Source of the DNA: Armatimonadota bacterium
Lineage (GTDB): Bacteria > Armatimonadota > UBA5829 > DTLH01
Reading direction: 5' to 3'
NCBI GenBank assembly: GCA_038207085.1
Contig: JBBRAE010000011.1
Coordinates: forward strand, 20,369 to 84,368
DNA length: 64,000 nt
Part shown: positions 15,496-36,426 of the stretch, piece after piece
Numbering within the stretch: position 1 is the first letter of the stretch
Layout of the letters: the number at the start of each line of letters is the position of its first letter
Translations under genes and position numbers: made by a program
Notes under the pieces: model-generated
What the model was told of the DNA's origin: nothing
Database searches by the model: none
The model's input: only the letters and a program-made list of their open reading frames with translations

Positions 15496-15622
15496 TTATA
15501 CCCGTTGGACAGCGAAACGTGCGCCGTCTGGCAGGCAGGCGCAATCGCGCCACGCATATTATACCAGAGGGGCGGAATATAGGGAAGGGCAAAGCAACGC
15601 GAGTTGTGAGCTTGGGGATGAT

Positions 15623-15650
15623 GGGGAGGCGTGAGTGCCTCCCCGATTTT
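15623..15650. terminator. Hairpin at the 3' end of the GT-C operon
   Basis: GGGGAGGC-N6-GCCTCCCC just downstream of the stop at 15656. Confidence 0.6.
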
Positions 15651-15655: not shown

Positions 15656-17611
15656 CTATCTGAGCTTGATGCCGTTTTGGGCGGCTTTGGCGATTGTCGC
15701 TTGAGCCTCCTGTTTGCGGCCCAGCGCCTCATAGCACCCAATGAGGTTTACGTACGCCTCCGGGTTCTTTGGGTTCAGGTCTACCGCGGTCAGCAGATGC
15801 GTCAATGCCTCGTCATAGCGTTTCATCGACATAAGAAGCCCGCCGAGGTTTGAGTGTGCGGTATCGTAGAACGGGTCTATCTCAAGCGCCTGCTGGTAGA
15901 CGCCGATCGCTTCATCTGGTTTGCCCGCAAGGGTGAGCGCGTAGCCGAGGTTACTGTAGGCGTTCTTGAAGCTCGGGTTCATATCAATCGCGCGCCGGAA
16001 CATCTCACAGGCCTTGTCATACTGGCCCTTCTTGCCGTAGATGATCGCGAGGTTGTTGACTGCCACCGGATCGTTCGTAGATATATTGATTGCCTGCTCA
16101 TAGTGCTCGAGCGCTTCGTCCAGCCTGCCCGTTCTTGAGAGAATATTGCCAAGCGCGTTGTGTGCCCGGGTATACCCCGGCTTTATCTCAAGCGCCGCAC
16201 GCACCGCCTGCTCGGCCTTGCCGTAGTCTTCCCTCAAGTCATAGTAGCCTCCGAGGTGTGTGTAGGCAAGGTAGTTGTTCGGGTTGACCTGTATCGCGTG
16301 CCTAAAGAGCGTCTCGCTTGTCCTCCAGTAGGTGACCTGCTGATAGGTGAGCGCGAAGCATGCGGCGAGCACGATAATTGCCGCAGGCGCGATCCAGGGC
16401 GGAGTAACCGTCACTGTTTCAGTGCCTTTGGCCCCACGTGCGACTTCTCGTTTGGTGGAGAAAATATCGGGAATGAGCCATGCGATCATAATAAAGAGCC
16501 CAACGAGGGGGATGTATGTATAGCGGTCGGCCATCGACTGCTCTCCGACCTGCACGAGGCCGATCACAGGGATCAGTGTGAAAAGATACCACACCCAGCC
16601 GACTGTGAGATAACCCCGGTTATGCCTGAATCGGATCACAAACGCCGTAATCGCGACGAGCACCAATAGGCAGATCACGACCGGCTGACTCTGCCCCGGA
16701 GGGGACAGTGGATAGAACACGGCAAGCTTCGCAGGCCAGATCATCTTGCCTATATAGGCCGCGCAGGCGACGATGGAGTTTGCGACGCGCGCAGCCATCG
16801 GCAGGTCTTCGAGCTGGTTCACCGCGCCTCCGCTCCTCTGCGCAAGGAAAGTGATAACGCTCGACGCCACCGTTAGCGCGAAAAGCGGCAGCTTCTCGAC
16901 GAAAAGCATCGAGAGCGAAGTATTGGGCTTGCGCTCAGGAGCAAGGCGTCGAAGCGGCCAGAAATCGAGCATCAAAAGCGCAAACGGCAGGGTGACGAGC
17001 ATCGGTTTTGCAAGCAGGCCAAGCACAAACGACGCCACTACGCACGCATAGAAGAGTCGTCTCTTTGAGCCCTGTTCGCTCACGTAGAACGCATAGGCGA
17101 GCATAGTCAGCATCCAGAAGAACGTCGAAAGCACGTCTTTTCGCTCCGCGACCCACGCCACCGACTCCACATGGAGCGGGTGAAGCGCAAAGAGCGCCGC
17201 GACGAAGCCGCTTTTCCAGATCGATCCGGTCATTTTCGATAGCGCGAGGAACAACAGCACCGTCGAAAGCACGTGGAAGATAACGTTTGTCGCGTGGTGT
17301 CCACCTGCGTTCAGTTTGTAGATGTCGTAGTCGACGGCGTGCGATATCCACGTCAATGGATGATAGTTCGCGGCATACGCGCGGCCTCCATCTTTCAAGA
17401 AGTCAATGGAGAAGCCCCACGTTGCAGCGTTTGCGACTCCGAGCTTGATGTTCGGGTTGTCTTTGACGTAGTCTGGGTCGTCGTAGAGCACGAAGTCGTT
17501 TTGGGTGACGTGCGCGTAGGCGGCAAACGTCGCAATGATAAGCACGACAAGGATTATCAGTAATGCGCGCTTATCGACCGGTGTCGGCGTCGGGACTTTG
17601 GATCTTTTCAT
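15656..17611 (-). CDS. TMTC-like GT-C membrane glycosyltransferase with C-terminal TPRs (paralog 7)
   Basis: FVLYDD, NYHPLTW, HPLHVESVAWVAERKDVL and ADRYTYIP motifs; multiple TPRs. Start MKRSK at 17611 after GGAG. Confidence 0.8.
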   Translation of the reverse strand: MKRSKVPTPTPVDKRALLIILVVLIIATFAAYAHVTQNDFVLYDDPDYVKDNPNIKLGVANAATWGFSIDFLKDGGRAYAANYHPLTWISHAVDYDIYKLNAGGHHATNVIFHVLSTVLLFLALSKMTGSIWKSGFVAALFALHPLHVESVAWVAERKDVLSTFFWMLTMLAYAFYVSEQGSKRRLFYACVVASFVLGLLAKPMLVTLPFALLMLDFWPLRRLAPERKPNTSLSMLFVEKLPLFALTVASSVITFLAQRSGGAVNQLEDLPMAARVANSIVACAAYIGKMIWPAKLAVFYPLSPPGQSQPVVICLLVLVAITAFVIRFRHNRGYLTVGWVWYLFTLIPVIGLVQVGEQSMADRYTYIPLVGLFIMIAWLIPDIFSTKREVARGAKGTETVTVTPPWIAPAAIIVLAACFALTYQQVTYWRTSETLFRHAIQVNPNNYLAYTHLGGYYDLREDYGKAEQAVRAALEIKPGYTRAHNALGNILSRTGRLDEALEHYEQAINISTNDPVAVNNLAIIYGKKGQYDKACEMFRRAIDMNPSFKNAYSNLGYALTLAGKPDEAIGVYQQALEIDPFYDTAHSNLGGLLMSMKRYDEALTHLLTAVDLNPKNPEAYVNLIGCYEALGRKQEAQATIAKAAQNGIKLR

Positions 17612-17612
17612 T

Positions 17613-19574
17613 CTATCGTTCTCCTGCTGCACGAGGCGCGGGGTCTGGAATTCGCTTATCTAATTCTACTATAAGTGCGGGGTGAGGTGAACCACCGAGT
17701 TCGCGGACGCGGTGGACTTCCTCCCAGGAACGGGCATAATCTCCCGTATTATACAGAGCTTCGGCGAGCCGATTATGCGCCTGAACGAACTTCGGGTTAT
17801 ATTGGAGCGCCTTTTCGTAGTATCCTACAGCCTCATCGTATCTTCCCTGCAGGACGAAGAGCACCCCGATGTTGGTATAGGCTTCAGGAAAATCGGGCTT
17901 GATACGAATCGCCGCTTCGAACTCTTTGTTCGCGCCCGCGATGTCGCCACTTTTTCCGAGAACCATACCGTAGTTGTTGTGCGCGTGCGGGTTCTCGGAG
18001 TTCAGCCTGATGGCTTCGAGACAGGCCAAACGGGCCCCTTTGATATCTCCTGAGACATAGAGCGCGCGCCCGAGGCCGGAGTATGCGAGGTCGCTGTCTT
18101 TTCTAATCTTGATGGCCTCACGGTAATGCTTTTTGGCCTCGCCCGGCTGGCCGGTCTCAAGAAGCGCGTTTGCGTAGTTGCACTGCTGATAGGAGTCGAG
18201 CGGATACACCTTGACCGCGCGACCGAGCATCTCAGCGGCTTCATCGTATCGTCCCATCTCAGCAAACTGGCAGCCGAGGTTGATCGCCGCGAGCCGGTTG
18301 TTCATATTGGAGTCAAGCGCGTGCCTGAACAGGGTTTCGTTGGTCTTCCAGCTAGCCACCTGAACGTGAGTCGTCGGCAGAAGCGCGGCAAGGACGACGA
18401 TAGCGGGCACCGTAACCGCTGCGGTTCTCACTTTGGATGAAAGCTTGTCTGCGAGGTCGGCGAGCCCCCATGTGACGGCGATAAAGAGCCCGATCACCGG
18501 CACGTAGGTGTAGCGGTCCGCCATCCCCTGCCATCCGACCTGGACTATCCCGATCACGGGAACGAGCATCACCAGAAACATCAGCCACCCCATCCCGACG
18601 TATGGACGACGCCTCGAAAGGCACACCGAGCCCGCCGATATTGCCGCAAGGACAGCAGCCGAGGCGATGATCTTCAGTATCGGGATCGATATCCCCGGAT
18701 GCGGGTAGAAGACGGCGAGGTTGACGGGCCAGATCGTCTTTCCAATGTAGGATGCGTAGGCGACGAGCGCGTTATCGATTCTGACCGAAAGCGGATACGT
18801 CGCAAGCGCCTGAACCGCGCCGCCCTTGTGCTGCACGAACATGGTGATGGCCGAACTTGCGGCGACCAGTGCGAAGTACGGCAGCTTTTCAACTACAAGG
18901 CGCTTCCATCCCCTAGACGCACGTTCGAGCGGCCACCAGTCGAGCAGCAGCAGCACAATCGGAAGCGTGACGAGCATAGGTTTCGCCATCAGGCCGAGCA
19001 CGAAGAGCCCGAGAGTGGCGAGATACCGTTTGCCGTTGGGTCGCTCGGTGTAGAAAGTGTACGAGATCAGTGTGGCCATCAAAAAGAACGTCGAGAGCAC
19101 GTCTTTGCGCTCGGAGACCCACGCGACCGACTCCACATGCATCGGGTGAATGGCAAACAGCGCCGCGACAAACGCGCTTCGCCACACTGCCCCCGTCATC
19201 TTCGATAGCGCGAGGAAGAGCAGGATCGCGCTCAGAATATGTATTGCAACGCTTGTCACGTGGTGTCCGCCCGGGGCGAGCCCGTAGAGCGAAACGTCCG
19301 TCATGTGAGATATCCACGTCAGCGGGTGCCAGTTGGCCGCGTAACCGTCGAAGCTAAACGCCCATTTGACCGCTTCAGGAGTAAGTCCCGAGCTTATGTT
19401 GGGGTTGTTCAGCACGTAGTCACCGTCGTCGTAGCGCACGAACTCGAAGGTGTGACACTGCCAATAGACCCCGAGCGTTCCGACGATCATGAGCAGTATG
19501 ATGATCGCATGCAGTCGGCTGAAAATTGGATTATCCGCCGTTTTTGCCCGGACGGGCTTCAGTTTGGCTTTCAC
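17613..19574 (-). CDS. TMTC-like GT-C + TPR protein (paralog 6)
   Basis: FVRYDD, NWHPLTW, HPMHVESVAWVSERKD and ADRYTYVP motifs; TPRs. GTG start at 19574 after AAAGGAG. Confidence 0.8.
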   Translation of the reverse strand: MKAKLKPVRAKTADNPIFSRLHAIIILLMIVGTLGVYWQCHTFEFVRYDDGDYVLNNPNISSGLTPEAVKWAFSFDGYAANWHPLTWISHMTDVSLYGLAPGGHHVTSVAIHILSAILLFLALSKMTGAVWRSAFVAALFAIHPMHVESVAWVSERKDVLSTFFLMATLISYTFYTERPNGKRYLATLGLFVLGLMAKPMLVTLPIVLLLLDWWPLERASRGWKRLVVEKLPYFALVAASSAITMFVQHKGGAVQALATYPLSVRIDNALVAYASYIGKTIWPVNLAVFYPHPGISIPILKIIASAAVLAAISAGSVCLSRRRPYVGMGWLMFLVMLVPVIGIVQVGWQGMADRYTYVPVIGLFIAVTWGLADLADKLSSKVRTAAVTVPAIVVLAALLPTTHVQVASWKTNETLFRHALDSNMNNRLAAINLGCQFAEMGRYDEAAEMLGRAVKVYPLDSYQQCNYANALLETGQPGEAKKHYREAIKIRKDSDLAYSGLGRALYVSGDIKGARLACLEAIRLNSENPHAHNNYGMVLGKSGDIAGANKEFEAAIRIKPDFPEAYTNIGVLFVLQGRYDEAVGYYEKALQYNPKFVQAHNRLAEALYNTGDYARSWEEVHRVRELGGSPHPALIVELDKRIPDPAPRAAGER

Positions 19575-19576
19575 GT

Positions 19577-21514
19577 CTACTCCTTTCTGTCGGTCAGGGC
19601 TTTGGCGACTGCTGGGTCGACCGCGCCGCCGTAGCGCAGGCACTGTTGTAATTCGTTATACGCCGAGGTGCGATCTCCCTCCCTGAATAGCGCCTCCGCG
19701 AGATGTCCGTGGGCTGCGGCAAACGTCGGGTCGACGCGAATAGCCTCAGCGTAGTAGGGAATCGCCTCGGCAAACTTGCCATGAAGCGCAAGCGCGTAGC
19801 CGATGTTGTGCGGAGCCTCAGGCATGGTCGGGTTGAGCACGGCGGCGCGTTTGAACTCGACAACCGCCTCATCAAACCGACCTGCGGATGCGAGAGCGAG
19901 GCCGTAGTTGTTCGCCGCGTCAGCGTTCTTGCCTTCGGTGTCGAGACGAACAGCAGTCTCGCCCGCCCGAATAGCCTCCTCGACCTGACCGTCGCCCGCA
20001 AGTGCCCGGGCAAGCGACGCGTAGCCGTCGATCGATTTCGGCTCCAGCCTGATCGCCGCCCTGTAGGACGCGATAGCCTCGTCGGCGCGTCCGAGGTCAA
20101 AGAGCGTGTTTCCGAGGTTGCGGCGCGCCTGCGCGTATGTGGGGTCAAACTCTACCGCCTGCCGCAGATACCCTTCGGCCTCCGCAAGCTGGCCGCGCTC
20201 CTGGAGAAACGCTCCGAGGTTGTTCAGCGCCCCAGAGTTCTTTGGATTGACCGAAATAGTGTGATGGAAGAGCGAAACGGTGTCTTTCCAGACCGCAACC
20301 TGCTTTGCCGTGACGACCGACAGGGCGATCAAAACGGCCACTGAAACGGTCGCAAGCGCAGCAGTTTTAGTCGCACTCGGCAACTTGAGTCTATCAAGCG
20401 CGTCAGGCACGAGCCATGCGACGATCACAAAGAGGCCAATCAAGGGGATATAGGTGTAGCGGTCGGCCATCGCCTGCCCGCCTACCTGCACGAGCCCTAT
20501 CACCGGGGTCAGCGTGCCGACGAACCAGAGCCACCCCACGATCAAATACGGTTTGACCTTTGAGTAGCGGACAAACCCCGCAGTCAGCATGGCAAGAATC
20601 AACGCAGAGGTGATGACCTGCCAGATTGGGATGCCCGCGCCGGGGTGAGGATAGGGTATAGCAAGGCGCGCGGGCCAGATCATCTTTCCGATGTAGCTCA
20701 CATACACCACGAGCGCGTTTTCGACCCTTACCGCAGGCGAATAACTCTGGAAGTCCTGAACGGCTCCCGCGCTGTGCTGGGCGATGAACGTAAGAACGCT
20801 CGACCCTATCGCAAGCAGCATAAACGGCGTCTTCTCAATAGCGAGCTTTCCCCAACTCTCCTTGCGACGCAGTGGCCAGTAGTCGAGCATAAGGAGCACG
20901 AATGGCAGCGTGACCAGCATCGGTTTTGCAAGCAGTCCGAGTGCGAAGAACACTACCGCCGCAGCGAACTTTGCCGCACCCGGTTTTGCGACATACCATG
21001 CGTAGGAGAGAAGGGTGAGCATTAGGAAAAACGTTGAAAGCACGTCTTTACGCTCGGCGGCCCATGCGACAGATTCGACGTGCAACGGGTGAACTGCAAA
21101 AAGCGCCGCGACAAAGGCGCTTCGCCAAAGGGAACCCGTCATCGCCGAAAAGGCGAGGAAAAGCAGCAGCGCGCTTGCTGTGTGCAAGCCAAGACCCATC
21201 ATGTGGTGCTTCGCCGCGTCGAGTCCAAAGAGCTTGACGTCGACCATATGGGATATCCACGTCAGCGGGTGCCAGTTCGCGGCGTAGCCGATGTTGAACG
21301 CCCACTTGATCGACTCCGGCGTGATTCCCTGCTGGACGTTAGGGTTTGTCTTTATGTAGGTGAAGTCGTCGTAGCGCACGAAATCGTTATGACGCATCCC
21401 CGAGAACGACCCGAGCGTGATGATCGCAAGCGCCAGGCAGACGGCGAGTTTCATCCATCTGTCGCTGAATCCTGGCCGGTGTGAAGTTGGCTTGCCTACG
21501 CGCTTCTTTGCCAT
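19577..21514 (-). CDS. TMTC-like GT-C + TPR protein (paralog 5)
   Basis: FVRYDD, NWHPLTW, HPLHVESVAWAAERKD and ADRYTYIP motifs; TPRs. Confidence 0.8.
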   Translation of the reverse strand: MAKKRVGKPTSHRPGFSDRWMKLAVCLALAIITLGSFSGMRHNDFVRYDDFTYIKTNPNVQQGITPESIKWAFNIGYAANWHPLTWISHMVDVKLFGLDAAKHHMMGLGLHTASALLLFLAFSAMTGSLWRSAFVAALFAVHPLHVESVAWAAERKDVLSTFFLMLTLLSYAWYVAKPGAAKFAAAVVFFALGLLAKPMLVTLPFVLLMLDYWPLRRKESWGKLAIEKTPFMLLAIGSSVLTFIAQHSAGAVQDFQSYSPAVRVENALVVYVSYIGKMIWPARLAIPYPHPGAGIPIWQVITSALILAMLTAGFVRYSKVKPYLIVGWLWFVGTLTPVIGLVQVGGQAMADRYTYIPLIGLFVIVAWLVPDALDRLKLPSATKTAALATVSVAVLIALSVVTAKQVAVWKDTVSLFHHTISVNPKNSGALNNLGAFLQERGQLAEAEGYLRQAVEFDPTYAQARRNLGNTLFDLGRADEAIASYRAAIRLEPKSIDGYASLARALAGDGQVEEAIRAGETAVRLDTEGKNADAANNYGLALASAGRFDEAVVEFKRAAVLNPTMPEAPHNIGYALALHGKFAEAIPYYAEAIRVDPTFAAAHGHLAEALFREGDRTSAYNELQQCLRYGGAVDPAVAKALTDRKE

Positions 21515-21517
21515 ATT

Positions 21518-23437
21518 CTACCTCGCTGGCTCCGGCATCTTGTGCCTTAACGCCTCTACAAACGGCGCGATCGCGACCCCGCCGTTGTCCTGACACAGGT
21601 GAACCTCGCGCCACGCGCCTGCGTAGTCGCCCTTTTTGTAGAGCTGCACGCCGAGGTTGTTGTGTGCCTTGGGCTCTGCCGGGTCAAGCTCGATTGCCCT
21701 CCGATACTCGGCTATGGCCGCTTCAGGGTCGACGCTCTCAATGGCGCATGCGAGGTTGTAATGGGGCGCAGCCGTACTTTCGCCGCGGAAAATCGCCTTG
21801 CGGAACTGCTCTGCAGCCTCGGCGTTCTTGCGGTATTTGGCGAGCATCCGACCGAGGTTTATGTGAATCTTTGCGATATTCGCATCCGGTTTGTCCGGCC
21901 CGATCTCGGCTTCTTTGACAGCAATTGCTTCGGTGTACTCTTTGTAAGCGTCTGCCGGTCTGTTCAGCTTCTCAAGCGCGAAAGCGAGGTTGTTGTGCCC
22001 CTCGGCCCAGCTGGGTCTGAGCTCGACGACCTGCCTGTAGTGCTCTTCCGCCTTGTCATACTTCTCAAGCTTCTCGTAGCCTTTGGCAAGGTTGTTGTGC
22101 GCGACCGAGTTGTTATCTGGGGCGACCTCAAGCGCGTGCTGGAAGAGTGATATGCTGTCGTGCCAGTAGCCTGTCTGGATGACGGTCAGCGTCGAAAGCA
22201 CCGCTAGAACAAAGAGCGCAGGGGCGACCAACAGAGTATTCGGCGCGCGCTCCGACTGCTTCTCAGTTCGCGAACGCTTCGGTGCAGGTTCTTTCTTCGT
22301 GAAAAGCTCAGGAATGCCCCAGGCGATCATCACGAATATGCCAATCAAGGGGATATAAGTATAGCGATCAGCCATTGCCTGCTCGCCTACTTGGATGATG
22401 CCGATCACCGGGACTAGCGTCACGAGATACCAAAGCCACCCAACCGGCAGGTAACTGTGCCGCCTGAGAACGAACGCCGCAATAGAAATTCCAATCAAAA
22501 AGACCGCAGATATGAAGACCAATAGCGCCGATATGCCGAGCCCAGGGTGAGGGTAGGGGTTTGCGAAATTGACCGGCCAGAAGGTCTTCAAAATATACGT
22601 TCCGTAGGAGAGTATGGCGTTGCCTATCTTGACCGCAAAGCCGAGCTTGTCCGCCCCACCCATCGCGCCACCTCTTTGCTGGACCACATACGTGATTATG
22701 CACGAAGCGATGGTCATTGAGAAAAGTGGGAGTTTCTCGGTGATAAGAGCGCTGACTTTGACCTGTCTGATCCTGCCAAGCGGCCACCAGTCAAGCAGCA
22801 GCAGCGCGATCGGGAGGGTCACAAGCATCGGTTTCGCCATAAGCCCGAGCGTGAACGAGACCAGCAAGAGCGTGTAGCGCAGCGCACCCGGACGCTCTGT
22901 ATACCAGACGTATGCCAGCATCGAGAGCATCCAGAACATCCCGGAGAGCACGTCTTTTCGCTCGGCGACCCACGCGACCGACTCCACATGGAACGGATGA
23001 AGCGCAAAAAGCGACGCAACAAACGCGCTCTTCCACGGGGAGTTGGTCATCCTCGTAAGAGCAAAGAAAAGCAGCAGTGTCGTTGCAATATGTATCAGCA
23101 CGTTCGAGAGGTGATGGAGCCACGGGTTTTGCGCGCCTTCGGGAAGCGTGGGGACGCCCACAGATGGCTTCACCCTGGCCCCGATTAGCCGGTCGATGTT
23201 CGCATCTAGCATATGGCTCATCCATGTGACGGGGTGCCAGTTTGCCGCGTAGCCGTTCATCTTGAAGGCGAAGGCTATCCCATCAAGCGTGATGCCCTTC
23301 AGCACGTGCGGGTTCTGGGTGATGTATTGCTCGTCATCATACTCCAGAAACTGCCCACGAAGCGACGGCGCGTAGACTGCGAGCGTAACGACGGCGAGCA
23401 GTGCGGCGATTATAAGATTTGTGCGTGTCTTCATCAT
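21518..23437 (-). CDS. TMTC-like GT-C + TPR protein (paralog 4)
   Basis: FLEYDD, NWHPVTW, HPFHVESVAWVAERKD and ADRYTYIP motifs; TPRs; about 20-aa insertion in the first loop. Confidence 0.8.
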   Translation of the reverse strand: MMKTRTNLIIAALLAVVTLAVYAPSLRGQFLEYDDEQYITQNPHVLKGITLDGIAFAFKMNGYAANWHPVTWMSHMLDANIDRLIGARVKPSVGVPTLPEGAQNPWLHHLSNVLIHIATTLLLFFALTRMTNSPWKSAFVASLFALHPFHVESVAWVAERKDVLSGMFWMLSMLAYVWYTERPGALRYTLLLVSFTLGLMAKPMLVTLPIALLLLDWWPLGRIRQVKVSALITEKLPLFSMTIASCIITYVVQQRGGAMGGADKLGFAVKIGNAILSYGTYILKTFWPVNFANPYPHPGLGISALLVFISAVFLIGISIAAFVLRRHSYLPVGWLWYLVTLVPVIGIIQVGEQAMADRYTYIPLIGIFVMIAWGIPELFTKKEPAPKRSRTEKQSERAPNTLLVAPALFVLAVLSTLTVIQTGYWHDSISLFQHALEVAPDNNSVAHNNLAKGYEKLEKYDKAEEHYRQVVELRPSWAEGHNNLAFALEKLNRPADAYKEYTEAIAVKEAEIGPDKPDANIAKIHINLGRMLAKYRKNAEAAEQFRKAIFRGESTAAPHYNLACAIESVDPEAAIAEYRRAIELDPAEPKAHNNLGVQLYKKGDYAGAWREVHLCQDNGGVAIAPFVEALRHKMPEPAR

Positions 23438-23443
23438 ATATGA

Positions 23444-25525: not shown

Positions 25526-25561
25526 TGTTCTCCGGATCGACGGCGCTATCCGCGCCGTCTC

Positions 25562-25642
25562 TTAGCCCGCTTTATTCGTGAAGCGAATAAAGCTTTCGCT
25601 AACAGAGCATTATTCACGCTACTCGTGAATAATGCGGGTTAG
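25562..25642 (-). mobile_element. MITE/REPIN-like element copy 3, flanked by TTAG direct repeats
   Basis: TTAG-CCCGCTTTATTCGTGAAGCGAATAAAGC...GCATTATTCACGCTACTCGTGAATAATGCGGG-TTAG. The core is the reverse complement of copy 1. Confidence 0.85.
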
Positions 25643-25651
25643 AGGCTGGCG

Positions 25652-27469: not shown

Positions 27470-27470
27470 A

Positions 27471-28982
27471 CTACTTTGCCGCTCCACTGTTGATGGTATT
27501 GATCCAGTCCTTGACCCCGGGGATATCCAGGTCGAACCCGTCACTAACAGCTCGATCAAGCTCTCTCTTGGCGGCGACGGGGTCACCTGTGACATAGAGC
27601 GCGCACGCGAGGTTGAAGCGGGCGACTGTCCACTTAGGTTTCAGCTCAAGCGCCTTCCGGATGTGGGGGATCGCTTCTGCGAAGCGATTGTCATTGGCGT
27701 AACCCATTCCAAGCTCGTGTTCGGCGAGGTAGTTGTTCGGGACGGCTGCCATCGCGTGCAGGAAGAGCGTTTCGCTGTCCTTCCAGACCTTGACCTGAGC
27801 AAAAGAAAGCACGGAGAGCGTGACAAGAATTATCGCAGAGATGGGGAGAAGTACCTTCGTCCGATTTTGAATCCACGCCTCGGGCACAGCCCAGACAATC
27901 GCGACAAACACCCCGATCAGCGGGATGTAGGTGTAGCGGTCCGCGTAAGCCTGCTCACCGACCTGCACCAGGCCAATCACGGGTATGAGCGAGACAATAT
28001 ACCATAGCCAGCCGCTCGCGATATATGGCTTAGTGCGTCGTATCACGACGGCAAGTGCGGTCATTGCGACGATAAACCCGCCGCTTGTCACGAGTTGCCA
28101 TGTGGGCCAGCCGCCGACCGGATGCGGGTAAAGCGCGGCGAGCCTGAGCGGCCAGAACATCTTCCAGATATATGCGGCGAACGCCACTCCCGCGGTCAGT
28201 ATGCGCTCGCCAATCGAATACGCGCCAAGGGATTGCACAGCTCCACCCGCGTTTTGGGCGAAGTAAGTCGCGACACATGAGCCAATCGCAAGAGCAAACA
28301 GCGGGATTTTCTCACGAATAAGCCTTCCCCAGCTTTCGCTTCTCCCGAGCGGCCAGCGGTCGATTACAAGAAGCAGTATCGGCAGCGTGACAAGCATCGG
28401 TTTGGCGAGAAGCCCCACGGTGAAAAGCGACGCCGTCAATACATAGTCAAAAGGCCTGCGCGACCCGACATAACGGTGGTACGCAAGCATCGATAACAGC
28501 AGAAAGAACGCGCTAAGCACGTCTTTACGCTCGGAAACCCACGCCACCGACTCCACGTGCAGTGGATGAAGCGCGAAAAGCGCCGCCACAACTGCGCTTC
28601 GCCAGAAACTCCCGGTAAGTCTCGTAAGAAGTACAAACAGCAGCAGGATATTCACGAGGTGAAGCAGGATATTCGTGAGGTGGTGCATCCCCGCGTTGCT
28701 CCCGTAGAGCTGGCAGTCGACCATGTGAGATATCCATGTCAGCGGGTGCCAGTTTGCGGCATGGGACGATGTGAACGCCCATATGACGTTATCTAGGGTA
28801 ACCCCGCCGGTGACGTGTTCGTTCAGGGTGACGTAGTGTTCGTCGTCGTGATACATTTGGAAACCAAACGCCGTCGCCTGCCAGTAGACGGCAATCGTCA
28901 GGATGAGTATCGCCGCAATGACTGCGACCTTCAGTCCCATGCCCGTGTTGTCTTTGGGCGAAAATACTGGTTTCTTCGTCAT
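27471..28982 (-). CDS. TMTC-like GT-C protein with short TPR tail (paralog 1)
   Basis: YHDD, NWHPLTW, HPLHVESVAWVSERKD and ADRYTYIP motifs; only about 2 TPRs; 503 aa. Confidence 0.8.
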   Translation of the reverse strand: MTKKPVFSPKDNTGMGLKVAVIAAILILTIAVYWQATAFGFQMYHDDEHYVTLNEHVTGGVTLDNVIWAFTSSHAANWHPLTWISHMVDCQLYGSNAGMHHLTNILLHLVNILLLFVLLTRLTGSFWRSAVVAALFALHPLHVESVAWVSERKDVLSAFFLLLSMLAYHRYVGSRRPFDYVLTASLFTVGLLAKPMLVTLPILLLVIDRWPLGRSESWGRLIREKIPLFALAIGSCVATYFAQNAGGAVQSLGAYSIGERILTAGVAFAAYIWKMFWPLRLAALYPHPVGGWPTWQLVTSGGFIVAMTALAVVIRRTKPYIASGWLWYIVSLIPVIGLVQVGEQAYADRYTYIPLIGVFVAIVWAVPEAWIQNRTKVLLPISAIILVTLSVLSFAQVKVWKDSETLFLHAMAAVPNNYLAEHELGMGYANDNRFAEAIPHIRKALELKPKWTVARFNLACALYVTGDPVAAKRELDRAVSDGFDLDIPGVKDWINTINSGAAK

Positions 28983-29015
28983 CTGCTAACTCCCCGGGTC
29001 CGCATTGGAGGCAAG

Positions 29016-29774
29016 CTACCTCTTTTTTGCCGGGAGGTATTTGGGATGAGAAATTCCCCACCTGGCAAGTCGGTAGGCAAGCGCCGTAGAAAGACATCCA
29101 AACCCGTATTTGACGCTCCTGCGGAAGTTGATCGATGACGCCTCAGGCGAATATCGTGCGGGACAGCTTACTTCGCCGATCCTGTAGTCCTGCCAGATCA
29201 CCTGGGATAGCATTTGGTTGTCGAACACGAAGTCGTCGGAATTGAGCTTGAGCGGCAGGTTTTCAAGCACCTCGCGTGAAAACGCCCGGTAGCCGGAATG
29301 ATATTCGGAGAGCTTCGCACCCATCATCAGGTTTCCAAATAGCGTCAGGAACCGGTTGGAGATGTAGCGCCACGCCGGCATTCCGTCTTTCATGGCGCGG
29401 CCTCCGAGGATTCGCGAGGCGACGACGCAGTCGTAGAGCCCGTTTCCGATGAGCGCGGCAATCGCAGGCACCAGCTTCGGGGTGTACTGATAATCCGGGT
29501 GGACCATGATGACGATATCCCCGCCGTGCTCCACTGCGAGTCTGTAGCAGCTCTTTTGATTGCCGCCGTAGCCTTTGTTCTCAGCGTGGGTATGCACGAC
29601 GGTGTTCGGCAGCATCCTGGCGACAGCCGAAGTGTTGTCGTGGCTTGCGTCATCGACGACAATCACGAGGTCGACAATTCCCTCCTGATCCATGACTTCG
29701 TTATATGTCTGAACGAGGGTGTTCTCCGCGTTGTATGCGGGCATTACAACGACGACCTTCTTATCTTTGAACAT
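29016..29774 (-). CDS. GT2 glycosyltransferase, DPM1/polyprenyl-phosphate sugar synthase-like
   Basis: VVMPAYN, VVDDAS, NKGYG, MVHPDYQY, ASR and HSGYRAF motifs; soluble, 252 aa. Confidence 0.85.
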   Translation of the reverse strand: MFKDKKVVVVMPAYNAENTLVQTYNEVMDQEGIVDLVIVVDDASHDNTSAVARMLPNTVVHTHAENKGYGGNQKSCYRLAVEHGGDIVIMVHPDYQYTPKLVPAIAALIGNGLYDCVVASRILGGRAMKDGMPAWRYISNRFLTLFGNLMMGAKLSEYHSGYRAFSREVLENLPLKLNSDDFVFDNQMLSQVIWQDYRIGEVSCPARYSPEASSINFRRSVKYGFGCLSTALAYRLARWGISHPKYLPAKKR

Positions 29775-29780
29775 GACTCT

Positions 29781-31454
29781 CTAGTTAGCCTCTATCTTTC
29801 TTTCGAAAATGTATATGCCATTGTCAGGCTTTATGGGATAGGCGCGAGCTTTGTCGCCCCATATATATTCGGTTGTAAACGAGCTTGGCCCAAGGCCTCC
29901 GTAGTAAGTCATTACGTAGCCCATTTGAGTGTAGTTCTTGGGGATATATTCACCGAGCGCCCAGTTCAGTATCGTCATATCGGAGCCCTGCCTCCAAAGC
30001 CACGACGTGCTGATGCTGACGAAGACTATATACTTCGGTTTGGACTTCTCGATCTCCGCGATCATTTCCTTCTGCATCTTGCCGGCGAGCTTCTGTCGCT
30101 CCATCAGGGGATAGGTATATATGTAGCCGGTCGCGCTACGCCTGTCTGCAAAGAACGGCAATTGCGGCTCGCTTCCAAGGACGGCGATAGTATCGGTTGG
30201 CTTGCTGTGAGCCTTAAGATACTTCGCGATCTCCTGAGTCTCTATCCATGGGTTGCCTCCGTAGATCGATCGTGTCGCCTGATCCATTGGGAGCCTGAGC
30301 AGAAACTCGGAGTGTGCGTTTATCGTGAAGAGCAGCCCCACGACGAAGACGGCGGCAGGGATATAGGAGACTGCCGCGATTCCAGTGAGCCTTTTAAGAA
30401 TATTTCGAGCGGAGCCGACAAACACGCCGATCAAGAGCGCAAGCGAGGGCATCCAAGTTACGTAGTAGTGCTGGCGGAAGTAGAACCCCGGGACAATCGT
30501 TGCAAGCGAGAAGAGGAAGAACCCCGTCATCCAGAGTGCGCGCTTGCGGGTTGCTCCGTCAACCCACACAAGCACCAGCCCGAGACCTGCGAGCAGCCAG
30601 AGGACTACGCTCGGACCTGCCATCTCAGATGTGTTTTTCAAAAACACACCCAGCGCCTGGCCTACGGGTATCTCGCCGACATAGTTTCTGGCATACTCAA
30701 ACGTCCACAGCCAGAACCTACCGAAGACTCCCGAGGCCGCCATAAGAGCGCAGATCAGAATATAGGGCAGCGCAGAGCAAGCAATAAACACACATGCTCG
30801 TCCTGTGATCGAAATAGCTCTAATCGGCCTCTCGCGAAGATCGTTTGCCAGGAGATATATGAGCACGAACGGGACGAAGAACATCCCCTGCTGCTTCATC
30901 GTAAGCGCGATACCTACAAGCACTCCTGACAGCGCGACGTGGAGGAGTTTCTTCGACTCCACAGCTTTCAGTGCAAAGAGAATACCGGCAAGCGCGGGTA
31001 GGACTACAAAATGCGTCGCGTGCGCCTGAGTGCCGAAGATGTTCTGGTTGATCGTGAGAAACCCGAACGCTGCAGCGGAGACTAGCCCGACCGTCGAGTC
31101 AAAGAGCCTGCGGGCGATCAGATACAGAAGCACCATCGATGCCGCGTTTACTACAAGCAGCCCGAGATGTATCCCGACCACACTCTGCCCGAAAACGCCC
31201 ATCACAAGCGCGTATGCGTAGTAGATGCCGGGGAGCTTCATATTGTAGGCGAGTTTGAACGGCGGGACGCCCTTCAGGATCAACTGGCCGACGTAGGCAT
31301 ACTCACCTTCGTCGCGCTCGATCGGTATGCCGAGCATCCTAATACGGATTGCCGCGTAAACGAGCACGATGACGCCAAGTATCGCCCACGACACCCACGA
31401 CGGGGTCTGTCCAGCTTCGATCTGTGGCTTGTCCAGTTTCCTACGCTTGCCCAT
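29781..31454 (-). CDS. ArnT/PMT-family GT-C membrane glycosyltransferase
   Basis: TM1 followed by ERDEGEY; KLPG and MKQQG motifs; many TMs; C-terminal soluble domain. Confidence 0.75.
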   Translation of the reverse strand: MGKRRKLDKPQIEAGQTPSWVSWAILGVIVLVYAAIRIRMLGIPIERDEGEYAYVGQLILKGVPPFKLAYNMKLPGIYYAYALVMGVFGQSVVGIHLGLLVVNAASMVLLYLIARRLFDSTVGLVSAAAFGFLTINQNIFGTQAHATHFVVLPALAGILFALKAVESKKLLHVALSGVLVGIALTMKQQGMFFVPFVLIYLLANDLRERPIRAISITGRACVFIACSALPYILICALMAASGVFGRFWLWTFEYARNYVGEIPVGQALGVFLKNTSEMAGPSVVLWLLAGLGLVLVWVDGATRKRALWMTGFFLFSLATIVPGFYFRQHYYVTWMPSLALLIGVFVGSARNILKRLTGIAAVSYIPAAVFVVGLLFTINAHSEFLLRLPMDQATRSIYGGNPWIETQEIAKYLKAHSKPTDTIAVLGSEPQLPFFADRRSATGYIYTYPLMERQKLAGKMQKEMIAEIEKSKPKYIVFVSISTSWLWRQGSDMTILNWALGEYIPKNYTQMGYVMTYYGGLGPSSFTTEYIWGDKARAYPIKPDNGIYIFERKIEAN

Positions 31455-31475
31455 AAGTGCAGATTCTCCTGTCGG

Positions 31476-33050
31476 TTACAAATTGTGGAACAGGTTAAAG
31501 GCGCTTGCGAAGACCCCGCGAGACATAAGTGCTTCGGAGGTGGTCACAATGACTATTATGAGCGCAAGCGCGATTCCTCTGTAGCGCTTGAGCTTGAAAA
31601 CTCCAAGAACTGAGCCGAGGCCCATAAGATACATCGCGATAAACGGCACCAGCGCGCCCGATATCAGCCTGCCCGCGGCAAAAAACGGGAACTCTCTTGA
31701 AGGCGCAAACCAGTTACCGAAGTCATAGCGCATCGACATAACAATCAGCATTCCGATGGAGGCGAGAAAGGCCACAGCCGAGAGTATGTCGGCAAACATA
31801 ACCATTTTCTCACGTTTCTTGCGATATGACCAGATGCTTACAAGAAACGTAAGCACAAATAACGAAGAGCTGACAGCGTAAAACTTGTCCATTCCGAGGC
31901 TGGCCATCGGTTTTTGCTGCCAAATATACTCACCTCGCCACAGGCTCGCCAGCGTCGCCTGCAGAAAGGCCCCAAACCCACCGGCGGTAAAAACGGGGTG
32001 GTCCCACATCTCCCAAAACGACTTGGTGCGCCATCCGACGGCCTCGGCATATTGCCCGGTCAGGGTGGGCGACCCGCTGAAGTGCATGTTATACGCGAAC
32101 CAGATGACGATTGGCAGCGCCGCAAAGAGCAGAAGAGTCCCCTGTTTCCAGATGACGCTTCGAAGTTCGCCCGCGCGCAAACTCTGGTAGAGCTTCAGTG
32201 CTACGACCGCCCCAAGTATTAACAAAATCGGAGCGTTTGTCAGTTTGGTGAGAAGCGCGCATGCGGCAAAGAGACCTGTAGCTGCGTGGAACAGATGGCT
32301 CCTGGATTTGTCTTTGTAGATCGCGATCAGGTTGTAGAAAGCAGCGCCAAACAGAAGTGCGGAGGGCACGTCGCTTTCGATTCCGTAGTACATGTCCTGC
32401 GGCAGGAAGGCGAGGAGTGCCGGGACTCCGAAGTGGAGGTAGTGGCGCTTGGGGTAGGTGCGCTTCATAAATACGTAAGAAAACCACAGCATTAGCCCGT
32501 AGAACACCACGTTCATCATTCGGATCCAGTACAGGCTCTGAATGCCACTGAGTCCGATCGCTTTACCGAAGTTGTACCACTGTCCCCCGATCAGATAATA
32601 GAACGGCGGTTGCACCGACTCGTGGTTCGCTTGTATCTGGAACTGCCGGTTTACTTCCTGCACGTAAGCCAGTCGCTCGGGATGTTTGAACTTCCAAGCC
32701 GGGGTTTTGATTCTGATTTCTTTTTCAGCATCGTTGACCATCTGGGGCGTGAAGAAGAACTCCCAAGACCCGCTGGTAGAGATTTTTTTGATAGCTTCTT
32801 TGGAGTAAGCTTCGAGTCCGTGCGGAATGTCAAGCTTTGCGTAGCGGCAGACGATGTCGAAATGCGCCTGCTCATCTACATTGTTGAAGAACGGAAACGC
32901 GGCACAAAAGAACAGAACGCGCAGTGTCCCAATCGCGCACAGCATGAGCACAATTGCGAGTTCATACCGGAGCCCAAAGTTAAATAGCACTGCAAATATG
33001 CCTTTGGGCTCCTTCACGACCTGAGTTATCGAAGGCTTGTGGTGTTTCAT
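31476..33050 (-). CDS. GT-C-like membrane protein (DUF2142-like)
   Basis: PFFNNVDEQAH, NHESVQPPFYY, LTK and GRL motifs; multi-TM. Confidence 0.65.
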   Translation of the reverse strand: MKHHKPSITQVVKEPKGIFAVLFNFGLRYELAIVLMLCAIGTLRVLFFCAAFPFFNNVDEQAHFDIVCRYAKLDIPHGLEAYSKEAIKKISTSGSWEFFFTPQMVNDAEKEIRIKTPAWKFKHPERLAYVQEVNRQFQIQANHESVQPPFYYLIGGQWYNFGKAIGLSGIQSLYWIRMMNVVFYGLMLWFSYVFMKRTYPKRHYLHFGVPALLAFLPQDMYYGIESDVPSALLFGAAFYNLIAIYKDKSRSHLFHAATGLFAACALLTKLTNAPILLILGAVVALKLYQSLRAGELRSVIWKQGTLLLFAALPIVIWFAYNMHFSGSPTLTGQYAEAVGWRTKSFWEMWDHPVFTAGGFGAFLQATLASLWRGEYIWQQKPMASLGMDKFYAVSSSLFVLTFLVSIWSYRKKREKMVMFADILSAVAFLASIGMLIVMSMRYDFGNWFAPSREFPFFAAGRLISGALVPFIAMYLMGLGSVLGVFKLKRYRGIALALIIVIVTTSEALMSRGVFASAFNLFHNL

Positions 33051-33068
33051 TTAGGGCTAATCACGGAC

Positions 33069-34670
33069 CTATTCATCTATTCGTTTCAATATTGCAACAG
33101 GAGCGATCCTCGGAGGGTCAATAGGCTCGGTCCGCCAGAGGTGCTCATCGGGAGTTTCTCTATTCTGGAATGGAATATCGGGATAAGGAATGTCTATTTG
33201 GCGGTATTTCCCTGTCTGCAATAGACCGTAGATCATACTGCGAACATCTTGCTCTTGAGATGATATCATGTACCGCCTCATCACTATCCAATCAGCCTCA
33301 CTTGCCGGGGTCAAGTCCTCACCGGTCAGTCCGCCAATGATACGAAGATTCGTATAATACTTTAGTGGAAGATCTTCGTAAGTGACGGTCACGACATCGC
33401 CCTTCTTGGCGTGCTCTTTGAGATACTTAACCGTACCTTCCACTGGTCCGACATAGTCGTGGGTGATCTCATAGACATAGGTGAATATGTCGTTCTTCTG
33501 CCCTTCGCCGCCGTTCATCTTGGCGAGCGGGCTCCAGAGCGCTACTGCAACAAGGGCTGCGATGCCCACGGACCAGTGGATTCTGTCGAGCAAAAGTGCC
33601 GTGATAAGGGATCCGATTGGGAGGATTGGTGCGAGGTATCGGAAAAATGGAGCAGGTGAGGTCGCAGACAGCGTAAATATCATCACAAGTGATGATATTA
33701 TGAGCAATCCAACGCTGCTGGCGATACGCGCATCGACCCTTGGTAGTCGTCCCTGCCGTAACAGACTCCACGCCACAGCAAGCACCGGAAGAACTAGGAG
33801 ATACGGATTGAGAATGTGAGTCCATATCTGGTGTAGGAACACGCCAAAGAAGTCCGCGATGTTGCTGCCGGTTGAGTATCTCTTACCATAGGACATCTGA
33901 GAAAGCCATACAATCCAAGGCAGGTTGATGGCTACCACAGCTCCGCACGAGGTGAGGATGTCTTTAATCCTGTCGCGATGAAATATTAGAGCGTGAATTA
34001 TAAGAGAAAATACAAGCGTGATGCAGTAAAGATAGAACGTCTGAAAGAGCAGCGTTCCAGCGACCACCAGTAGCAACCACGAGCTCCGTTTTCGGTCGAT
34101 GAGCCTCAGATACGCGTGTATCGTCAGTATCGTAAAGAATGCAGCCGGGCTATAGTATCTGCACTGGCGGGCAAGAAGCAGGAAGGGCACCGAAAGCGTC
34201 AACGCCCCTGCGGCGAATAGACCCGCCTTCCAACTACGCCACATCTCAGCCGCGGTGAAATATATCAGCACAATCGTCGCAAGTCCAAAGATCGCAAAAG
34301 GCAGGCGCGCTGCAAGTGTGCTCGACTTGCCAAGGACCAGGAAGAACGGCACGATCACATAAAACTGCAGCCACGTGTGCCATTTCCAGATGTAGTTCTT
34401 GCCGTACTCGGCTCCGGCTTCTTGCGAGAAATAGTTTTGTCCGTCGTAGCCGTGCGGTGTGCCATACTGGAGAATCGTGCGTGCGACAAGCGCGGTCTGT
34501 GCTTCGTCCTGCCAAAGCATCTGTTGGCCGACTTTAGCGAACATCAAGACCGCGGCAATCAGGAACACGGCGAACGCAGCGATTGCATGCTTGGATCGCA
34601 GCCAACCTTTCCATGAGCCGTCCCATCGGGCGATCTCAGGTGTCTGCTTCGCCTGTTTCCTTGATTTCAT
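33069..34670 (-). CDS. ArnT/PMT-family GT-C membrane glycosyltransferase
   Basis: LWQDEAQTA, ARLPFA and RQCRYY motifs; multi-TM; C-terminal soluble domain. Confidence 0.75.
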   Translation of the reverse strand: MKSRKQAKQTPEIARWDGSWKGWLRSKHAIAAFAVFLIAAVLMFAKVGQQMLWQDEAQTALVARTILQYGTPHGYDGQNYFSQEAGAEYGKNYIWKWHTWLQFYVIVPFFLVLGKSSTLAARLPFAIFGLATIVLIYFTAAEMWRSWKAGLFAAGALTLSVPFLLLARQCRYYSPAAFFTILTIHAYLRLIDRKRSSWLLLVVAGTLLFQTFYLYCITLVFSLIIHALIFHRDRIKDILTSCGAVVAINLPWIVWLSQMSYGKRYSTGSNIADFFGVFLHQIWTHILNPYLLVLPVLAVAWSLLRQGRLPRVDARIASSVGLLIISSLVMIFTLSATSPAPFFRYLAPILPIGSLITALLLDRIHWSVGIAALVAVALWSPLAKMNGGEGQKNDIFTYVYEITHDYVGPVEGTVKYLKEHAKKGDVVTVTYEDLPLKYYTNLRIIGGLTGEDLTPASEADWIVMRRYMISSQEQDVRSMIYGLLQTGKYRQIDIPYPDIPFQNRETPDEHLWRTEPIDPPRIAPVAILKRIDE

Positions 34671-36337
34671 TTCGTGTTCCTCTCAGTTGCTTTGATTCGC
34701 TTGTAGATAACGACTTTCGGCTCGCCTGACGGGCTCTTCCACATATGATCGTCGGGGTCCTCGCGGTTCTCAAAGAAGGTGTCGGTGCAGTCGAGTTTGA
34801 TCGGCTGATAGTCCTTCGCGTTGATCTCCGTGGCCAGGAAGTCGAACACAGGCTTTTCATAGGGCCCGACCGGGCGATTTCGGATGATTATCCACTCCGC
34901 GTGCTTCGCATCAGACAGGTCCTCGCCCGTGAGCCCACCGAGTACTCTCAAGTTGGTGTAGTACTTCACTGTGAGGTCTTCATAGGTGATGAGCACGACG
35001 TCTTTTGGATTTGCGTGGGCGTTCAGATACCTTACCACGCCCTCGACAGGACCGTTGTAGTCGTGAGTGATCTCATAGAGATACGTTCCGATGTCGTTTT
35101 TGCGCGTATACTCCTCGGCTCCAACCTGCCGTGCCACCGGGCTCGCGAGGAGCATCACAGCAAAAATGATCGAGGCCGCAACCACGTGTACGCGATCGAG
35201 AATCAGTGCAATAACGACACACGCAAGCGGTATAAGTGGGGCAAGGGTTCGTAGATAGGCAACCGGCGTGCTCATTGCGAAAGCCAGGCATGTGATGACA
35301 GAGAACACAACGAGCAAGATTGTGTAGCTGGTGGCTCTTCTGTCCAGTCGTACCCAGTGCTTCTGCTTCATGAGCCTTGCTACATACACGCCAAACGGGA
35401 TTACTAGTAGGACAGGGTTGAGAACGTGCTTGGCTAGCAAGTTCCCATAAAAGAGATTGGACTCAACGAAATGCTTGAAAGAAGTGTAGTCTCCGTAGGC
35501 GTCGCCCACATCTATGCTCATGAAAAATCGGAGAGGAAGAATATTCGCAACGGTTACCGCAACTGATGCAGCGATAATCTTACTTGCTCTGGCTCGATGA
35601 AAGACAAGGGCGTGAGCAAAGACTGTAGCAAATAGGGCTGCAGCGTAACCGTAGTGAGTGTGCAGGAGTAACAGTGACGAGATCACATATAGCACGAGCG
35701 ACCACCGCTTCCGGTCGAGGTAACGCGCATAGGCATAGAACGCAAGGACAGTGAAGAACATCGCAGGGGCGTAGTATCTGCACTGGCGTGACAACAAGAG
35801 AAATGGTACGCTTGTGGCAAGAAGCAGTCCAGCGAAAACAGCGGCTTTGTGGCTTCTCCACAGAGTGAGCGCCAACAGATAAGTGAATACAACTGTCCCA
35901 AGGCCAAACATAGCAAACGGCAGCCTGGCGGCAAGCGTGGGGTCCTCTACCAGAGCGAGGAACGGCGCTGTGGCATAGAACATTACCCAAGTGTGCCATT
36001 TCCAGATATAGTTCGTGCCATATTCCCTTCCAGCGTCCTGAGAGAAGAAGTTTCTGCCGTCGTAGCCGTGGGGAATGCCTTGGTGCAAGATAGTGCGTGA
36101 GACTAGTGCAGTCTGTGCTTCATCCTGCCAAAGGTAGATGTTTCCGAGGTTAGCGAGCAACAGGATTGATGCAAGGACAGTGATTGCGATCAGTGGCGCG
36201 TAGAACCTGAGCCATCCTCCACGTCCAGGGGCTGGCACGGGCTCGGGTCTCTCAACCCAGGAAGATTTTACGCTGTGAGGACTCTTGTGCTTGTGGCTAG
36301 ACATGACCTTAGCGGGAGCGTTTAGACACTCTCCCAT
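34667..36337 (-). CDS. ArnT/PMT-family GT-C membrane glycosyltransferase (paralog of 33069-34670)
   Basis: LWQDEAQTA, YIWKWHTW, RQCRYY and YEITHDY.GPVEG motifs. The start could be 36304. Confidence 0.75.
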   Translation of the reverse strand: MGECLNAPAKVMSSHKHKSPHSVKSSWVERPEPVPAPGRGGWLRFYAPLIAITVLASILLLANLGNIYLWQDEAQTALVSRTILHQGIPHGYDGRNFFSQDAGREYGTNYIWKWHTWVMFYATAPFLALVEDPTLAARLPFAMFGLGTVVFTYLLALTLWRSHKAAVFAGLLLATSVPFLLLSRQCRYYAPAMFFTVLAFYAYARYLDRKRWSLVLYVISSLLLLHTHYGYAAALFATVFAHALVFHRARASKIIAASVAVTVANILPLRFFMSIDVGDAYGDYTSFKHFVESNLFYGNLLAKHVLNPVLLVIPFGVYVARLMKQKHWVRLDRRATSYTILLVVFSVITCLAFAMSTPVAYLRTLAPLIPLACVVIALILDRVHVVAASIIFAVMLLASPVARQVGAEEYTRKNDIGTYLYEITHDYNGPVEGVVRYLNAHANPKDVVLITYEDLTVKYYTNLRVLGGLTGEDLSDAKHAEWIIIRNRPVGPYEKPVFDFLATEINAKDYQPIKLDCTDTFFENREDPDDHMWKSPSGEPKVVIYKRIKATERNTK

Positions 36338-36397: not shown

Positions 36398-36426
36398 AAT
36401 CTATCACGAGACTGCCATAACGTCAA
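36398..36426 (-). promoter_or_regulatory. Sigma70-type promoter for the GT-C operon
   Basis: Minus-strand TTGACG, 17-nt spacer ending TGA, then TAGATT (extended -10). Confidence 0.55.

Follow-up and report, generated by a model that had tools for sequence, protein, structure and literature searches.

We analyzed a 64,000-nt stretch of an Armatimonadota genome (the window, within which all operon coordinates are counted), which carries a putative operon of 12 minus-strand open reading frames (ORFs) at 15656–36337 (20,682 bp, from the ORF list of the window). In order of transcription, these encode four plain GT-C glycosyltransferases (A, B, C and D), one DPM-type GT2 glycosyltransferase (hereafter GT2) and seven paralogs in which a GT-C domain is followed by TPRs (T1–T7), that is, 11 GT-Cs and a single candidate donor synthase. 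Co-occurrence in related genomes and adjacency across phyla support the GT2 as the conserved partner and probable donor synthase of the T paralogs. Our preferred reading, held with modest confidence, is that the GT2 and the GT-C+TPR clade form the core of a periplasmic monosaccharide-transfer system that would act on Ser/Thr residues of exported proteins. The initial annotation of the window, made from the sequence alone, had described the same gene composition, which Pfam confirmed, and had proposed the operon as a candidate TMTC-type protein glycosylation system that is self-contained.

Probable donor synthase

We scored co-occurrence in 31 genomes of the order, taking E ≤ 1e-60 for a close T homolog and E ≤ 1e-100 (67–74% identity) for a GT2 ortholog. 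Close T homologs were found in 15 of the 31 genomes and GT2 orthologs in 13; all 13 GT2-positive genomes carried the T clade, and none of the 16 clade-negative genomes had the GT2. The same split was seen within two genera, where both genes occurred in 2 of 5 and 4 of 5 genomes and the remaining genomes had neither. We attach no P value because related genomes are not independent. Of the 12 other GT2-positive genomes, 9 had the two genes as neighbors. We also surveyed the 80 best of at least 599 GT2 loci in GTDB, which come from Planctomycetota, Verrucomicrobiota, Desulfobacterota, Acidobacteriota and others. A gene of the T superfamily was present in 30 of these loci, 28 of which had a close paralog, and a superfamily member was directly adjacent to the GT2 in 18. 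The initial annotation had assigned donor synthesis for the TPR paralogs to the GT2, and the co-occurrence and adjacency support this.

The GT2 itself (29016–29774, minus strand, 252 aa; PF00535, 7e-22) is plausibly a polyprenyl-phosphate sugar synthase. Its best match in the PDB was Pyrococcus DPMS (5mlz, E 5e-11), followed by ArnC, and it resembles the dolichol- and polyprenol-phosphate hexose synthases (DPMS, AglJ, PpgS, PgfS and ArnC) in being short and in the order of the DPMS motifs. It differs from DPMS in that HPD replaces DAD and C-terminal membrane helices are missing. Scores against the NCBIfam models of AglJ, PpgS and PgfS were 31–66 bits against cut-offs of 325–529, and the ESM Atlas label was simply GT2. 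Since the GT2 reaches the cut-off of no named family, the mannose donor proposed earlier is unsupported. GDP-mannose synthesis was likewise not established in the genome, for which we obtained one PF01050 match (35.7 bits) in a 189-aa frame.

Several other genes were considered around the GT2. Methyltransferases dependent on S-adenosylmethionine adjoin it in L045, L048, L058, L062 and L089 (5 of the 38 GT2-locus proteins scanned) and may methylate the sugar. Two further short GT2s of the polyprenyl-phosphate-synthase type, at C65:6352–7032 and C2:87800–88534 of this genome (G000), could supply other lipid donors. Long GT2 ORFs in L032, L047, L072 and L091 were not counted as fusions, because a second Pfam domain was absent and the L032 extension overlaps a T gene. 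We also rejected as a partner a gene of about 910 aa that follows the module of GT2 and T genes in 7 of the 80 loci, the start of which resembles that of DNA polymerase I.

Fold and motifs of T1–T7

The paralogs lie on the minus strand at 27471–28982 (T1, 503 aa, with a short TPR tail), 25652–27469 (T2), 23444–25525 (T3, 693 aa), 21518–23437 (T4, 639 aa), 19577–21514 (T5, 645 aa), 17613–19574 (T6) and 15656–17611 (T7). For three of them, the longest ORF begins upstream of the likely start used here (27595 against 27469 for T2, 19643 against 19574, a GTG, for T6, and 17632 against 17611 for T7). Pfam detected TPRs in all seven and a weak PMT_2 match in three. The AlphaFold2 model of T1, built with 136 sequences, had a predicted local distance difference test (pLDDT) score of 94.3 and contained 11 long helices, as read from its secondary structure, followed by the TPRs assigned by Pfam. 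It matched Pmt2 (Z 18.7, root-mean-square deviation (rmsd) 4.6, 338 aligned), AglB (18.3), Pmt4 (17.9), ArnT (17.8) and ALG12 (16.4), and Foldseek ranked AglB, STT3 and PglB at the top. With the top four matches tied, the acceptor cannot be read from the fold. The model of D (pLDDT 94.9) matched Pmt4 (Z 24.5, rmsd 3.7, 366 aligned), Pmt1 (23.4) and ArnT (19.7). T1 and D are thus both predicted to have the GT-C fold, in line with the initial annotation; the fold was modeled for these two of the 11 proteins, and A, B and C were assigned by Pfam only. When the T membrane domain was compared by sequence with the PDB, the matches were confined to TPRs or there were none. TMTC and TMEM260 were absent from the fold-search listings of T1, which excludes nothing.

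All 11 membrane proteins carry an acidic pair directly after the first transmembrane helix (TM1), as had been noted before, and in T1–T7 this pair is DD. The same catalytic motifs recur in all seven paralogs, including HPxHxESV...ERKD; this motif stands as first described, whereas the last one, originally given as AER.LY.P, reads ADRY(T/S)Y.P. Across 136 close homologs, the DD was present in 136, the three residues of RKD in 134, 136 and 135, the Lys of the fourth TMTC motif (M4) in 135 and the Arg of the seventh (M7) in 136, where the Tyr is also nearly invariant. Of 109 hits, the 104 with full-length domains entered the alignment used for motif comparison, and the tree comprised 102 rows, two of the 104 (L101 and one L100 row) being left out; one homolog alignment drew on 135 of the 150 hits of a cluster search.

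Relation to animal TMTCs

TMTC1–4 are animal enzymes of CAZy family GT105 that transfer mannose from dolichol-phosphate mannose to cadherins as protein O-mannosyltransferases, and T1–T7 resemble them in combining a membrane domain with C-terminal TPRs. Visual comparison with the published TMTC alignment (PMC7801869, supplement 1) shows the two to be collinear over the whole membrane domain: DD, (R/H)P, H.VN..LH, FAVHPxHxE.V...RxD, K, L.P..L and P...VG..A(E/D)R..Y.P. In ESM Atlas, a eukaryotic DUF1736 cluster appeared at 0.92 with 187 shared features. Bridging bacterial proteins scored 149–165 bits to the window profile, and 2 of the 15 scanned had a weak TMTC_DUF1736 match (E 0.015 and 0.024) in the expected loop. 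Kinship with TMTCs, as first proposed, is therefore retained on the strength of the collinearity, the ESM Atlas link and the bridging proteins.

Membership of the TMTC type is another matter. The T clade keeps M1 (DD), M3 (RxD, here RKD) and M7 ((E)RxxY, here DRxxY, with Asp for Glu). In M2, SHKSYRP is replaced by xxxNWHP (N in 133, W in 133, H in 134 and P in 136 of 136), so that only the Pro is kept. M4 changes from KE(T/Q)xxT to KPMLVT: the Lys is kept in 135 of 136 and the Thr/Ser is also kept, and the Glu gives way to Pro in 132, Ala in 3 and Ser in 1. M5, DW in the DUF1736 loop, becomes FY(P), with Tyr in 136 of 136 and Asp not among the commonest residues at a position set by eye, and M6 changes from PASN to PVIG. 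According to PMC7801869, the M4 Glu and M5 Asp are modeled metal ligands and M2 provides modeled mannose contacts. Pfam TMTC_DUF1736 (PF08409) had no match in the genome at E 10. With key residues lost in three of the seven published motifs, a fourth altered, and no TMTC_DUF1736 match, the earlier label "TMTC-type" is unsupported. A separate bacterial subfamily, represented by six proteins in the alignment (L107, L108 and L110–L113), retains the TMTC residues and falls outside the clade of the window in the tree (90 of 102 rows, SH-aLRT 98). Judging from these comparisons, T1–T7 appear to be a derived clade of bacterial TMTC relatives that probably work like TMTCs but fail several of their defining features, and mannose is thus not to be assumed.

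Acceptor of T1–T7

We somewhat favor a protein as the acceptor of T1–T7. Both characterized GT-C+TPR types, TMTC/TMEM260 and TfpW, act on proteins. TfpW, from Pseudomonas aeruginosa group IV strains, is described (10.1101/2020.04.19.049825) as a 646-aa protein with 11 predicted transmembrane helices, a periplasmic C-terminal TPR and DDX in loop 1, encoded directly behind pilA; it O-links D-arabinofuranose from a lipid-linked monosaccharide donor to pilin Ser/Thr. T1–T7 (503–693 aa) share this layout, as compared by published description. They differ in that the donor would come from the GT2, D-arabinofuranose genes are absent here and the copies are seven in tandem; moreover, neither the operon nor the two other close T paralogs of the genome has a neighboring pilin. 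The loop-4 motif YX6PFX7P of TfpW corresponds to Y-x6-P-x7-P in the T paralogs, which lacks the Phe and is one residue shorter. No TfpW-named protein was found among the 120 listed homologs of a pilin-adjacent distant T member, no TfpW-like match by tblastn of plasmids, and no TfpW model in NCBIfam.

TMEM260 (Pfam PF11028) is similar in design, with a GT-C core and a lumenal TPR that recruits the acceptor, and the TPR alone is reported to recruit the acceptor peptide (10.64898/2026.03.17.711096); TMEM260 belongs to a different family from T1–T7 and has an extra Rossmann-like domain. The genome encodes its own TMEM260-like GT-C with a C-terminal TPR (C3:84514–86448, equivalent to L102:4518–6449; PF11028, E 1e-27), so that, with T1–T7, both animal families of GT-C+TPR O-mannosyltransferases have relatives in this genome.

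Indirect evidence for a protein acceptor also comes from genomic neighborhoods. Among the 28 loci with a close paralog, which were selected by GT2 similarity only, Ser/Thr-rich pilin genes lie 57–195 bp upstream of close-clade T genes in four (L025, L032, L049 and L061); in a fifth case the pilin gene is upstream of a distant T member (L082). A large-scale count of this linkage was precluded, since 30 further genomes of the phylum of G031 gave no match at 1e-90. By a simple pattern, 11 PEP-CTERM-like proteins and about 13 prepilin-like ones are encoded in the genome of the window, and protein acceptors thus exist in it. Complex prediction for the L049 paralog and its neighboring pilin scored 0.00, giving no answer either way. 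As a separate observation, the Ser/Thr-rich short pilins of L025, L049, L058, L061, L067 and L082 share two invariant Thr in their globular part (T76 and T101 of L049), which are candidate glycosylation sites.

A number of results weigh against this reading. The fold of T1 is also common to the lipid- and glycan-acceptor enzymes ArnT, ALG12 and AftB. We found no candidate acceptor gene in or beside the operon, no pilin gene in 38 loci of this genome and its order (L001–L020 and L101–L118), and none in 70 loci from another class (151 genomes sampled, superfamily in 84). The T clade lacks the M4 Glu, M5 Asp and M6 Asn of TMTCs across the 136 homologs. None of T, D or A/B was present in 44 of the 80 GT2 loci, many of which are cut by contig ends. 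The TPR parts of the paralogs are only 23–36% identical, compared with 46–55% in the membrane domain, but TPR repeats diverge fast anyway, so this is weak evidence for different targets. PEP-CTERM proteins, considered as acceptors that track the module, were rejected because they occur in 27 of 31 relatives regardless of it; their genes adjoin a T gene in just 3 of 38 loci. In several long proteins (P0152, P0153, P0155, P0157, P0160 and P0162), the T domain is also the downstream part of a fusion, preceded by a YfhO-like or GT87 GT-C domain or by a further T domain. YfhO-like and GT87 families take part in polymer and glycolipid glycosylation.

The fusions to YfhO-like and GT87 domains would suit another acceptor, and we give appreciable but clearly lower probability to a Gtr-type system with many transferases, in which the sugar would be added in the periplasm to a polysaccharide, a lipid-linked glycan or lipid A and the TPR tails would bind the polymer or partner proteins. 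Three-component Gtr-type systems (GtrB/GtrA/Gtr*; GT136 pathway) are described in PMC11127046 as decorating polysaccharides with only a synthase, a flippase and a GT-C, and like the operon they combine a GT2 donor synthase with a GT-C in a cassette without Wzx or Wzy. None of the 12 operon proteins matched a Wzx, Wzy or nucleotide-sugar family (Pfam, NCBIfam), just as first noted; the argument built on it, that the locus does not look like one for polysaccharides, is unsupported, because Gtr-type systems need neither gene and the genome has five Wzx-family genes over the cut-off on other contigs. LpxC and LpxB are also encoded on other contigs, a GtrA-type flippase gene lies on contig C19, 4 kb from one of the Wzx-family genes, and the first motif of D resembles that of ArnT. 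On the other side, unlike Gtr-type cassettes, the operon has no flippase among its 12 genes, 11 GT-Cs per synthase and seven proteins with TPR tails. The module was not within polysaccharide loci in 20 order-level loci chosen around the best T matches, and the pilin adjacency in 4 of 28 loci also speaks against this reading. We found no characterized GT-C+TPR enzyme with a polymer acceptor in the literature searched, and D fits Pmt4 and Pmt1 over ArnT by 4–5 Z units. Decoration of a polymer or lipid is more likely for A–D than for T1–T7.

Expansion of the paralogs

Sugar transfer by T1–T7 could proceed by parallel enzymes or by an assembly line, in which a glycan on a protein or lipid would be built up stepwise, with one defined residue or linkage contributed by each paralog. 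The tight coupling of 11 transferases in a single operon, the recurrence of the order A/B, D, GT2 and T in L066 (Phycisphaerales), and the report that TfpW both polymerizes and transfers its sugar (10.1101/2020.04.19.049825) would suit an assembly line. We consider it unlikely in view of the single donor synthase, the identical catalytic motifs of the seven paralogs, and the distribution of the copies. T copy number ranges from 1 to about 10 among relatives, and paralogs are often scattered. The tree groups copies by lineage and not into fixed ortholog sets: two genomes of one genus contribute eight copies that cluster together (100), and same-genome pairs are many. Two more close T copies are present in the genome, at C35:1280–3226 and C8:31039–33018; T3, T5, T6 and T7 group with the C8 copy (92, not starred), with T1, T2 and T4 elsewhere. 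Identity among the window copies does not exceed their identity to members from other phyla (52–55%), so the duplications appear old, and they are only moderately resolved. We read this pattern as repeated expansion, apparently not a fixed set of steps.

It is very improbable that T1–T7 are non-catalytic, lipid-sugar-binding scaffolds or chaperones like PIG-U within the GT-C fold: PIG-U is among the T1 fold matches (Z 13.9) and both residues modeled as metal ligands in TMTCs are absent from the clade, but the DD, RKD, Lys and M7 Arg are nearly invariant, the TMTC metal is itself a modeled one (PMC7801869), and the clade travels with a donor synthase.

The family as a whole is large: among 50%-identity clusters, the membrane domain recruits 18,406 at E ≤ 1e-30 and 70,092 at 1e-3. 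The C8 copy is flanked on one side by multiheme cytochrome genes and on the other by the gene of a 1304-aa TPR protein, which is followed by a VIT/VWA protein. A distant GT-C of 638 aa (C4:47267–49183) has DD, YRP and KQE motifs; a TPR was not seen in it, and its first 411 residues had no Pfam match.

Proposed mechanism and significance

For the protein O-glycosylation that we prefer, the family of the GT2 suggests that it would make a polyprenyl-phosphate sugar at the cytoplasmic face, with the nucleotide sugar coming from other loci, and that a flippase encoded elsewhere would move the lipid-sugar across the membrane. The operon was originally considered self-contained; having no flippase or sugar-nucleotide gene, and with a GtrA-type flippase on another contig, it does not support that view. 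T1–T7, whose fold and catalytic residues are described above, would then all perform the same chemistry, transferring the sugar to Ser/Thr of exported proteins with the invariant DD and phosphate-binding Arg/Lys, and their divergent periplasmic TPR tails may choose different targets. They would be parallel enzymes arising from repeated duplication and not successive steps. More loosely, D and the later additions A, B and C might build on the first sugar, or might act on other acceptors with either this lipid donor or a different one.

A wider reading, which we offer tentatively and regard as rather doubtful, joins these elements: the clade and the GT2 would constitute a multi-enzyme system for general protein O-glycosylation, spread over many environmental phyla, in which one donor feeds repeatedly expanding, probably metal-independent TMTC relatives. 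Their TPR tails would each select exported proteins (a pilin in some deltaproteobacteria), the plain GT-Cs would add sugars, and TfpW, the clade and animal TMTCs would form one family of bacterial origin.

Full-length TMTC homologs in uncharacterized prokaryotes had been reported (PMC7801869), and TfpW is a characterized bacterial enzyme of such a design; both were overlooked in the initial annotation. With both in print, the operon is not surprising in kind. What sets it apart is its size (11 GT-Cs to one synthase), its divergence from canonical TMTCs at the level of motifs, and the clean pattern in which the clade co-occurs with a single GT2 family. In the literature searched, which covered few subscription journals, we found neither a functional study of a bacterial TMTC homolog nor a relevant paper in which TfpW and TMTC are named together; PMC4973528 and PMC6801728 added nothing on bacterial members, and PDB searches turned up no TMTC structure. 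The GT2 and one paralog, with the adjacent pilin where present, make a defined minimal unit, and donor and metal use should depend on the active-site differences from TMTCs. Should the acceptors be proteins, this would be an unrecognized glycosylation system in many Planctomycetota, Verrucomicrobiota, Desulfobacterota and Armatimonadota, and its small bacterial enzymes would offer convenient models of TMTCs.

Accessory GT-Cs

A–D are accessory to this core. On the minus strand, A (34667–36337, 556 aa; Pfam PMT, 2e-6, 27.9 bits against a cut-off of 22.7) and B (33069–34670, 533 aa; PMT_2, 3e-9) both have WQDE after TM1 and are paralogous, with 46% identity. C (31476–33050, 524 aa) is a DUF2142 GT-C-like protein (4e-14) with VDE after TM1, and D (29781–31454, 557 aa; PMT_2, 9e-17) carries RDE after TM1 and a periplasmic alpha/beta domain. 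D is a recurrent partner of the GT2, found in 12 of the 80 GT2 loci, and its close orthologs occur in 3 of 30 relatives, all GT2-positive. A/B stood alongside the GT2 in 3 of the 80 loci, and in L066 A/B, D, GT2 and T follow the same order as in the window; among five metagenome loci of B (three of them <5 kb), none had a GT2 or T nearby. C occurred in none of the 80 GT2 loci, and no ortholog was found in 30 relatives (best match E 3e-12). Given these low counts, the earlier proposal that the four plain GT-Cs extend or decorate the glycan as a fixed set is unsupported. The G+C content of A–C is 0.52–0.53 (0.529 for A) compared with 0.57–0.59 for T1–T7, which fits later addition of A, B and C to the operon. 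No deformylase or aminotransferase, as would be expected beside ArnT (GT83) in a pathway for Ara4N or another amino sugar, was found among the 12 operon proteins (Pfam, NCBIfam).

Operon layout and neighboring features

The 12 genes had been described as co-oriented and closely spaced over 20.7 kb, and this was confirmed. With the likely starts given above for T2, T6 and T7, the 11 intergenic gaps are, in order, −4, 18, 21, 6, 33, 1, 126, 6, 3, 2 and 1 bp; ten are ≤33 bp, and the single 126-bp gap, between T2 and T3, contains a genome-wide palindromic repeat that lies outside the pathway. A sigma-70-like promoter candidate at 36398–36426 (minus strand; 9 of 12 consensus matches, with a TG extension) stands about 60 nt ahead of the start of A. 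The site named in the initial annotation thus exists, but such sites in the region are at chance level (9 observed against 7.1 ± 2.1 in shuffles), so that position alone favors 36426–36398. A 10-bp GC-rich hairpin 3' of the last gene (15622–15645) scored as terminator-like on the plus strand, the operon strand being without a T run. The enolase gene downstream has its own extended −10 (TG-TATAAT), and together with the hairpin after T7 this indicates that the operon probably ends at 15656.

Upstream, a divergent gene at 36532–37317 (plus strand) encodes a 261-aa protein with about six transmembrane helices, which had no Pfam or NCBIfam match, and is followed by a PfkB sugar kinase gene. An empty site was not found in the four family members that have both enolase and pfkB genes, where the two are on separate contigs. 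The palindromic repeat is a double hairpin of about 80 bp, with copies at 25556–25640, within the operon, at 36462–36540, between the operon and the divergent gene, at 13921–14073 (two copies) and at 56874–56942, and it gave 187 distinct blastn matches in the genome.

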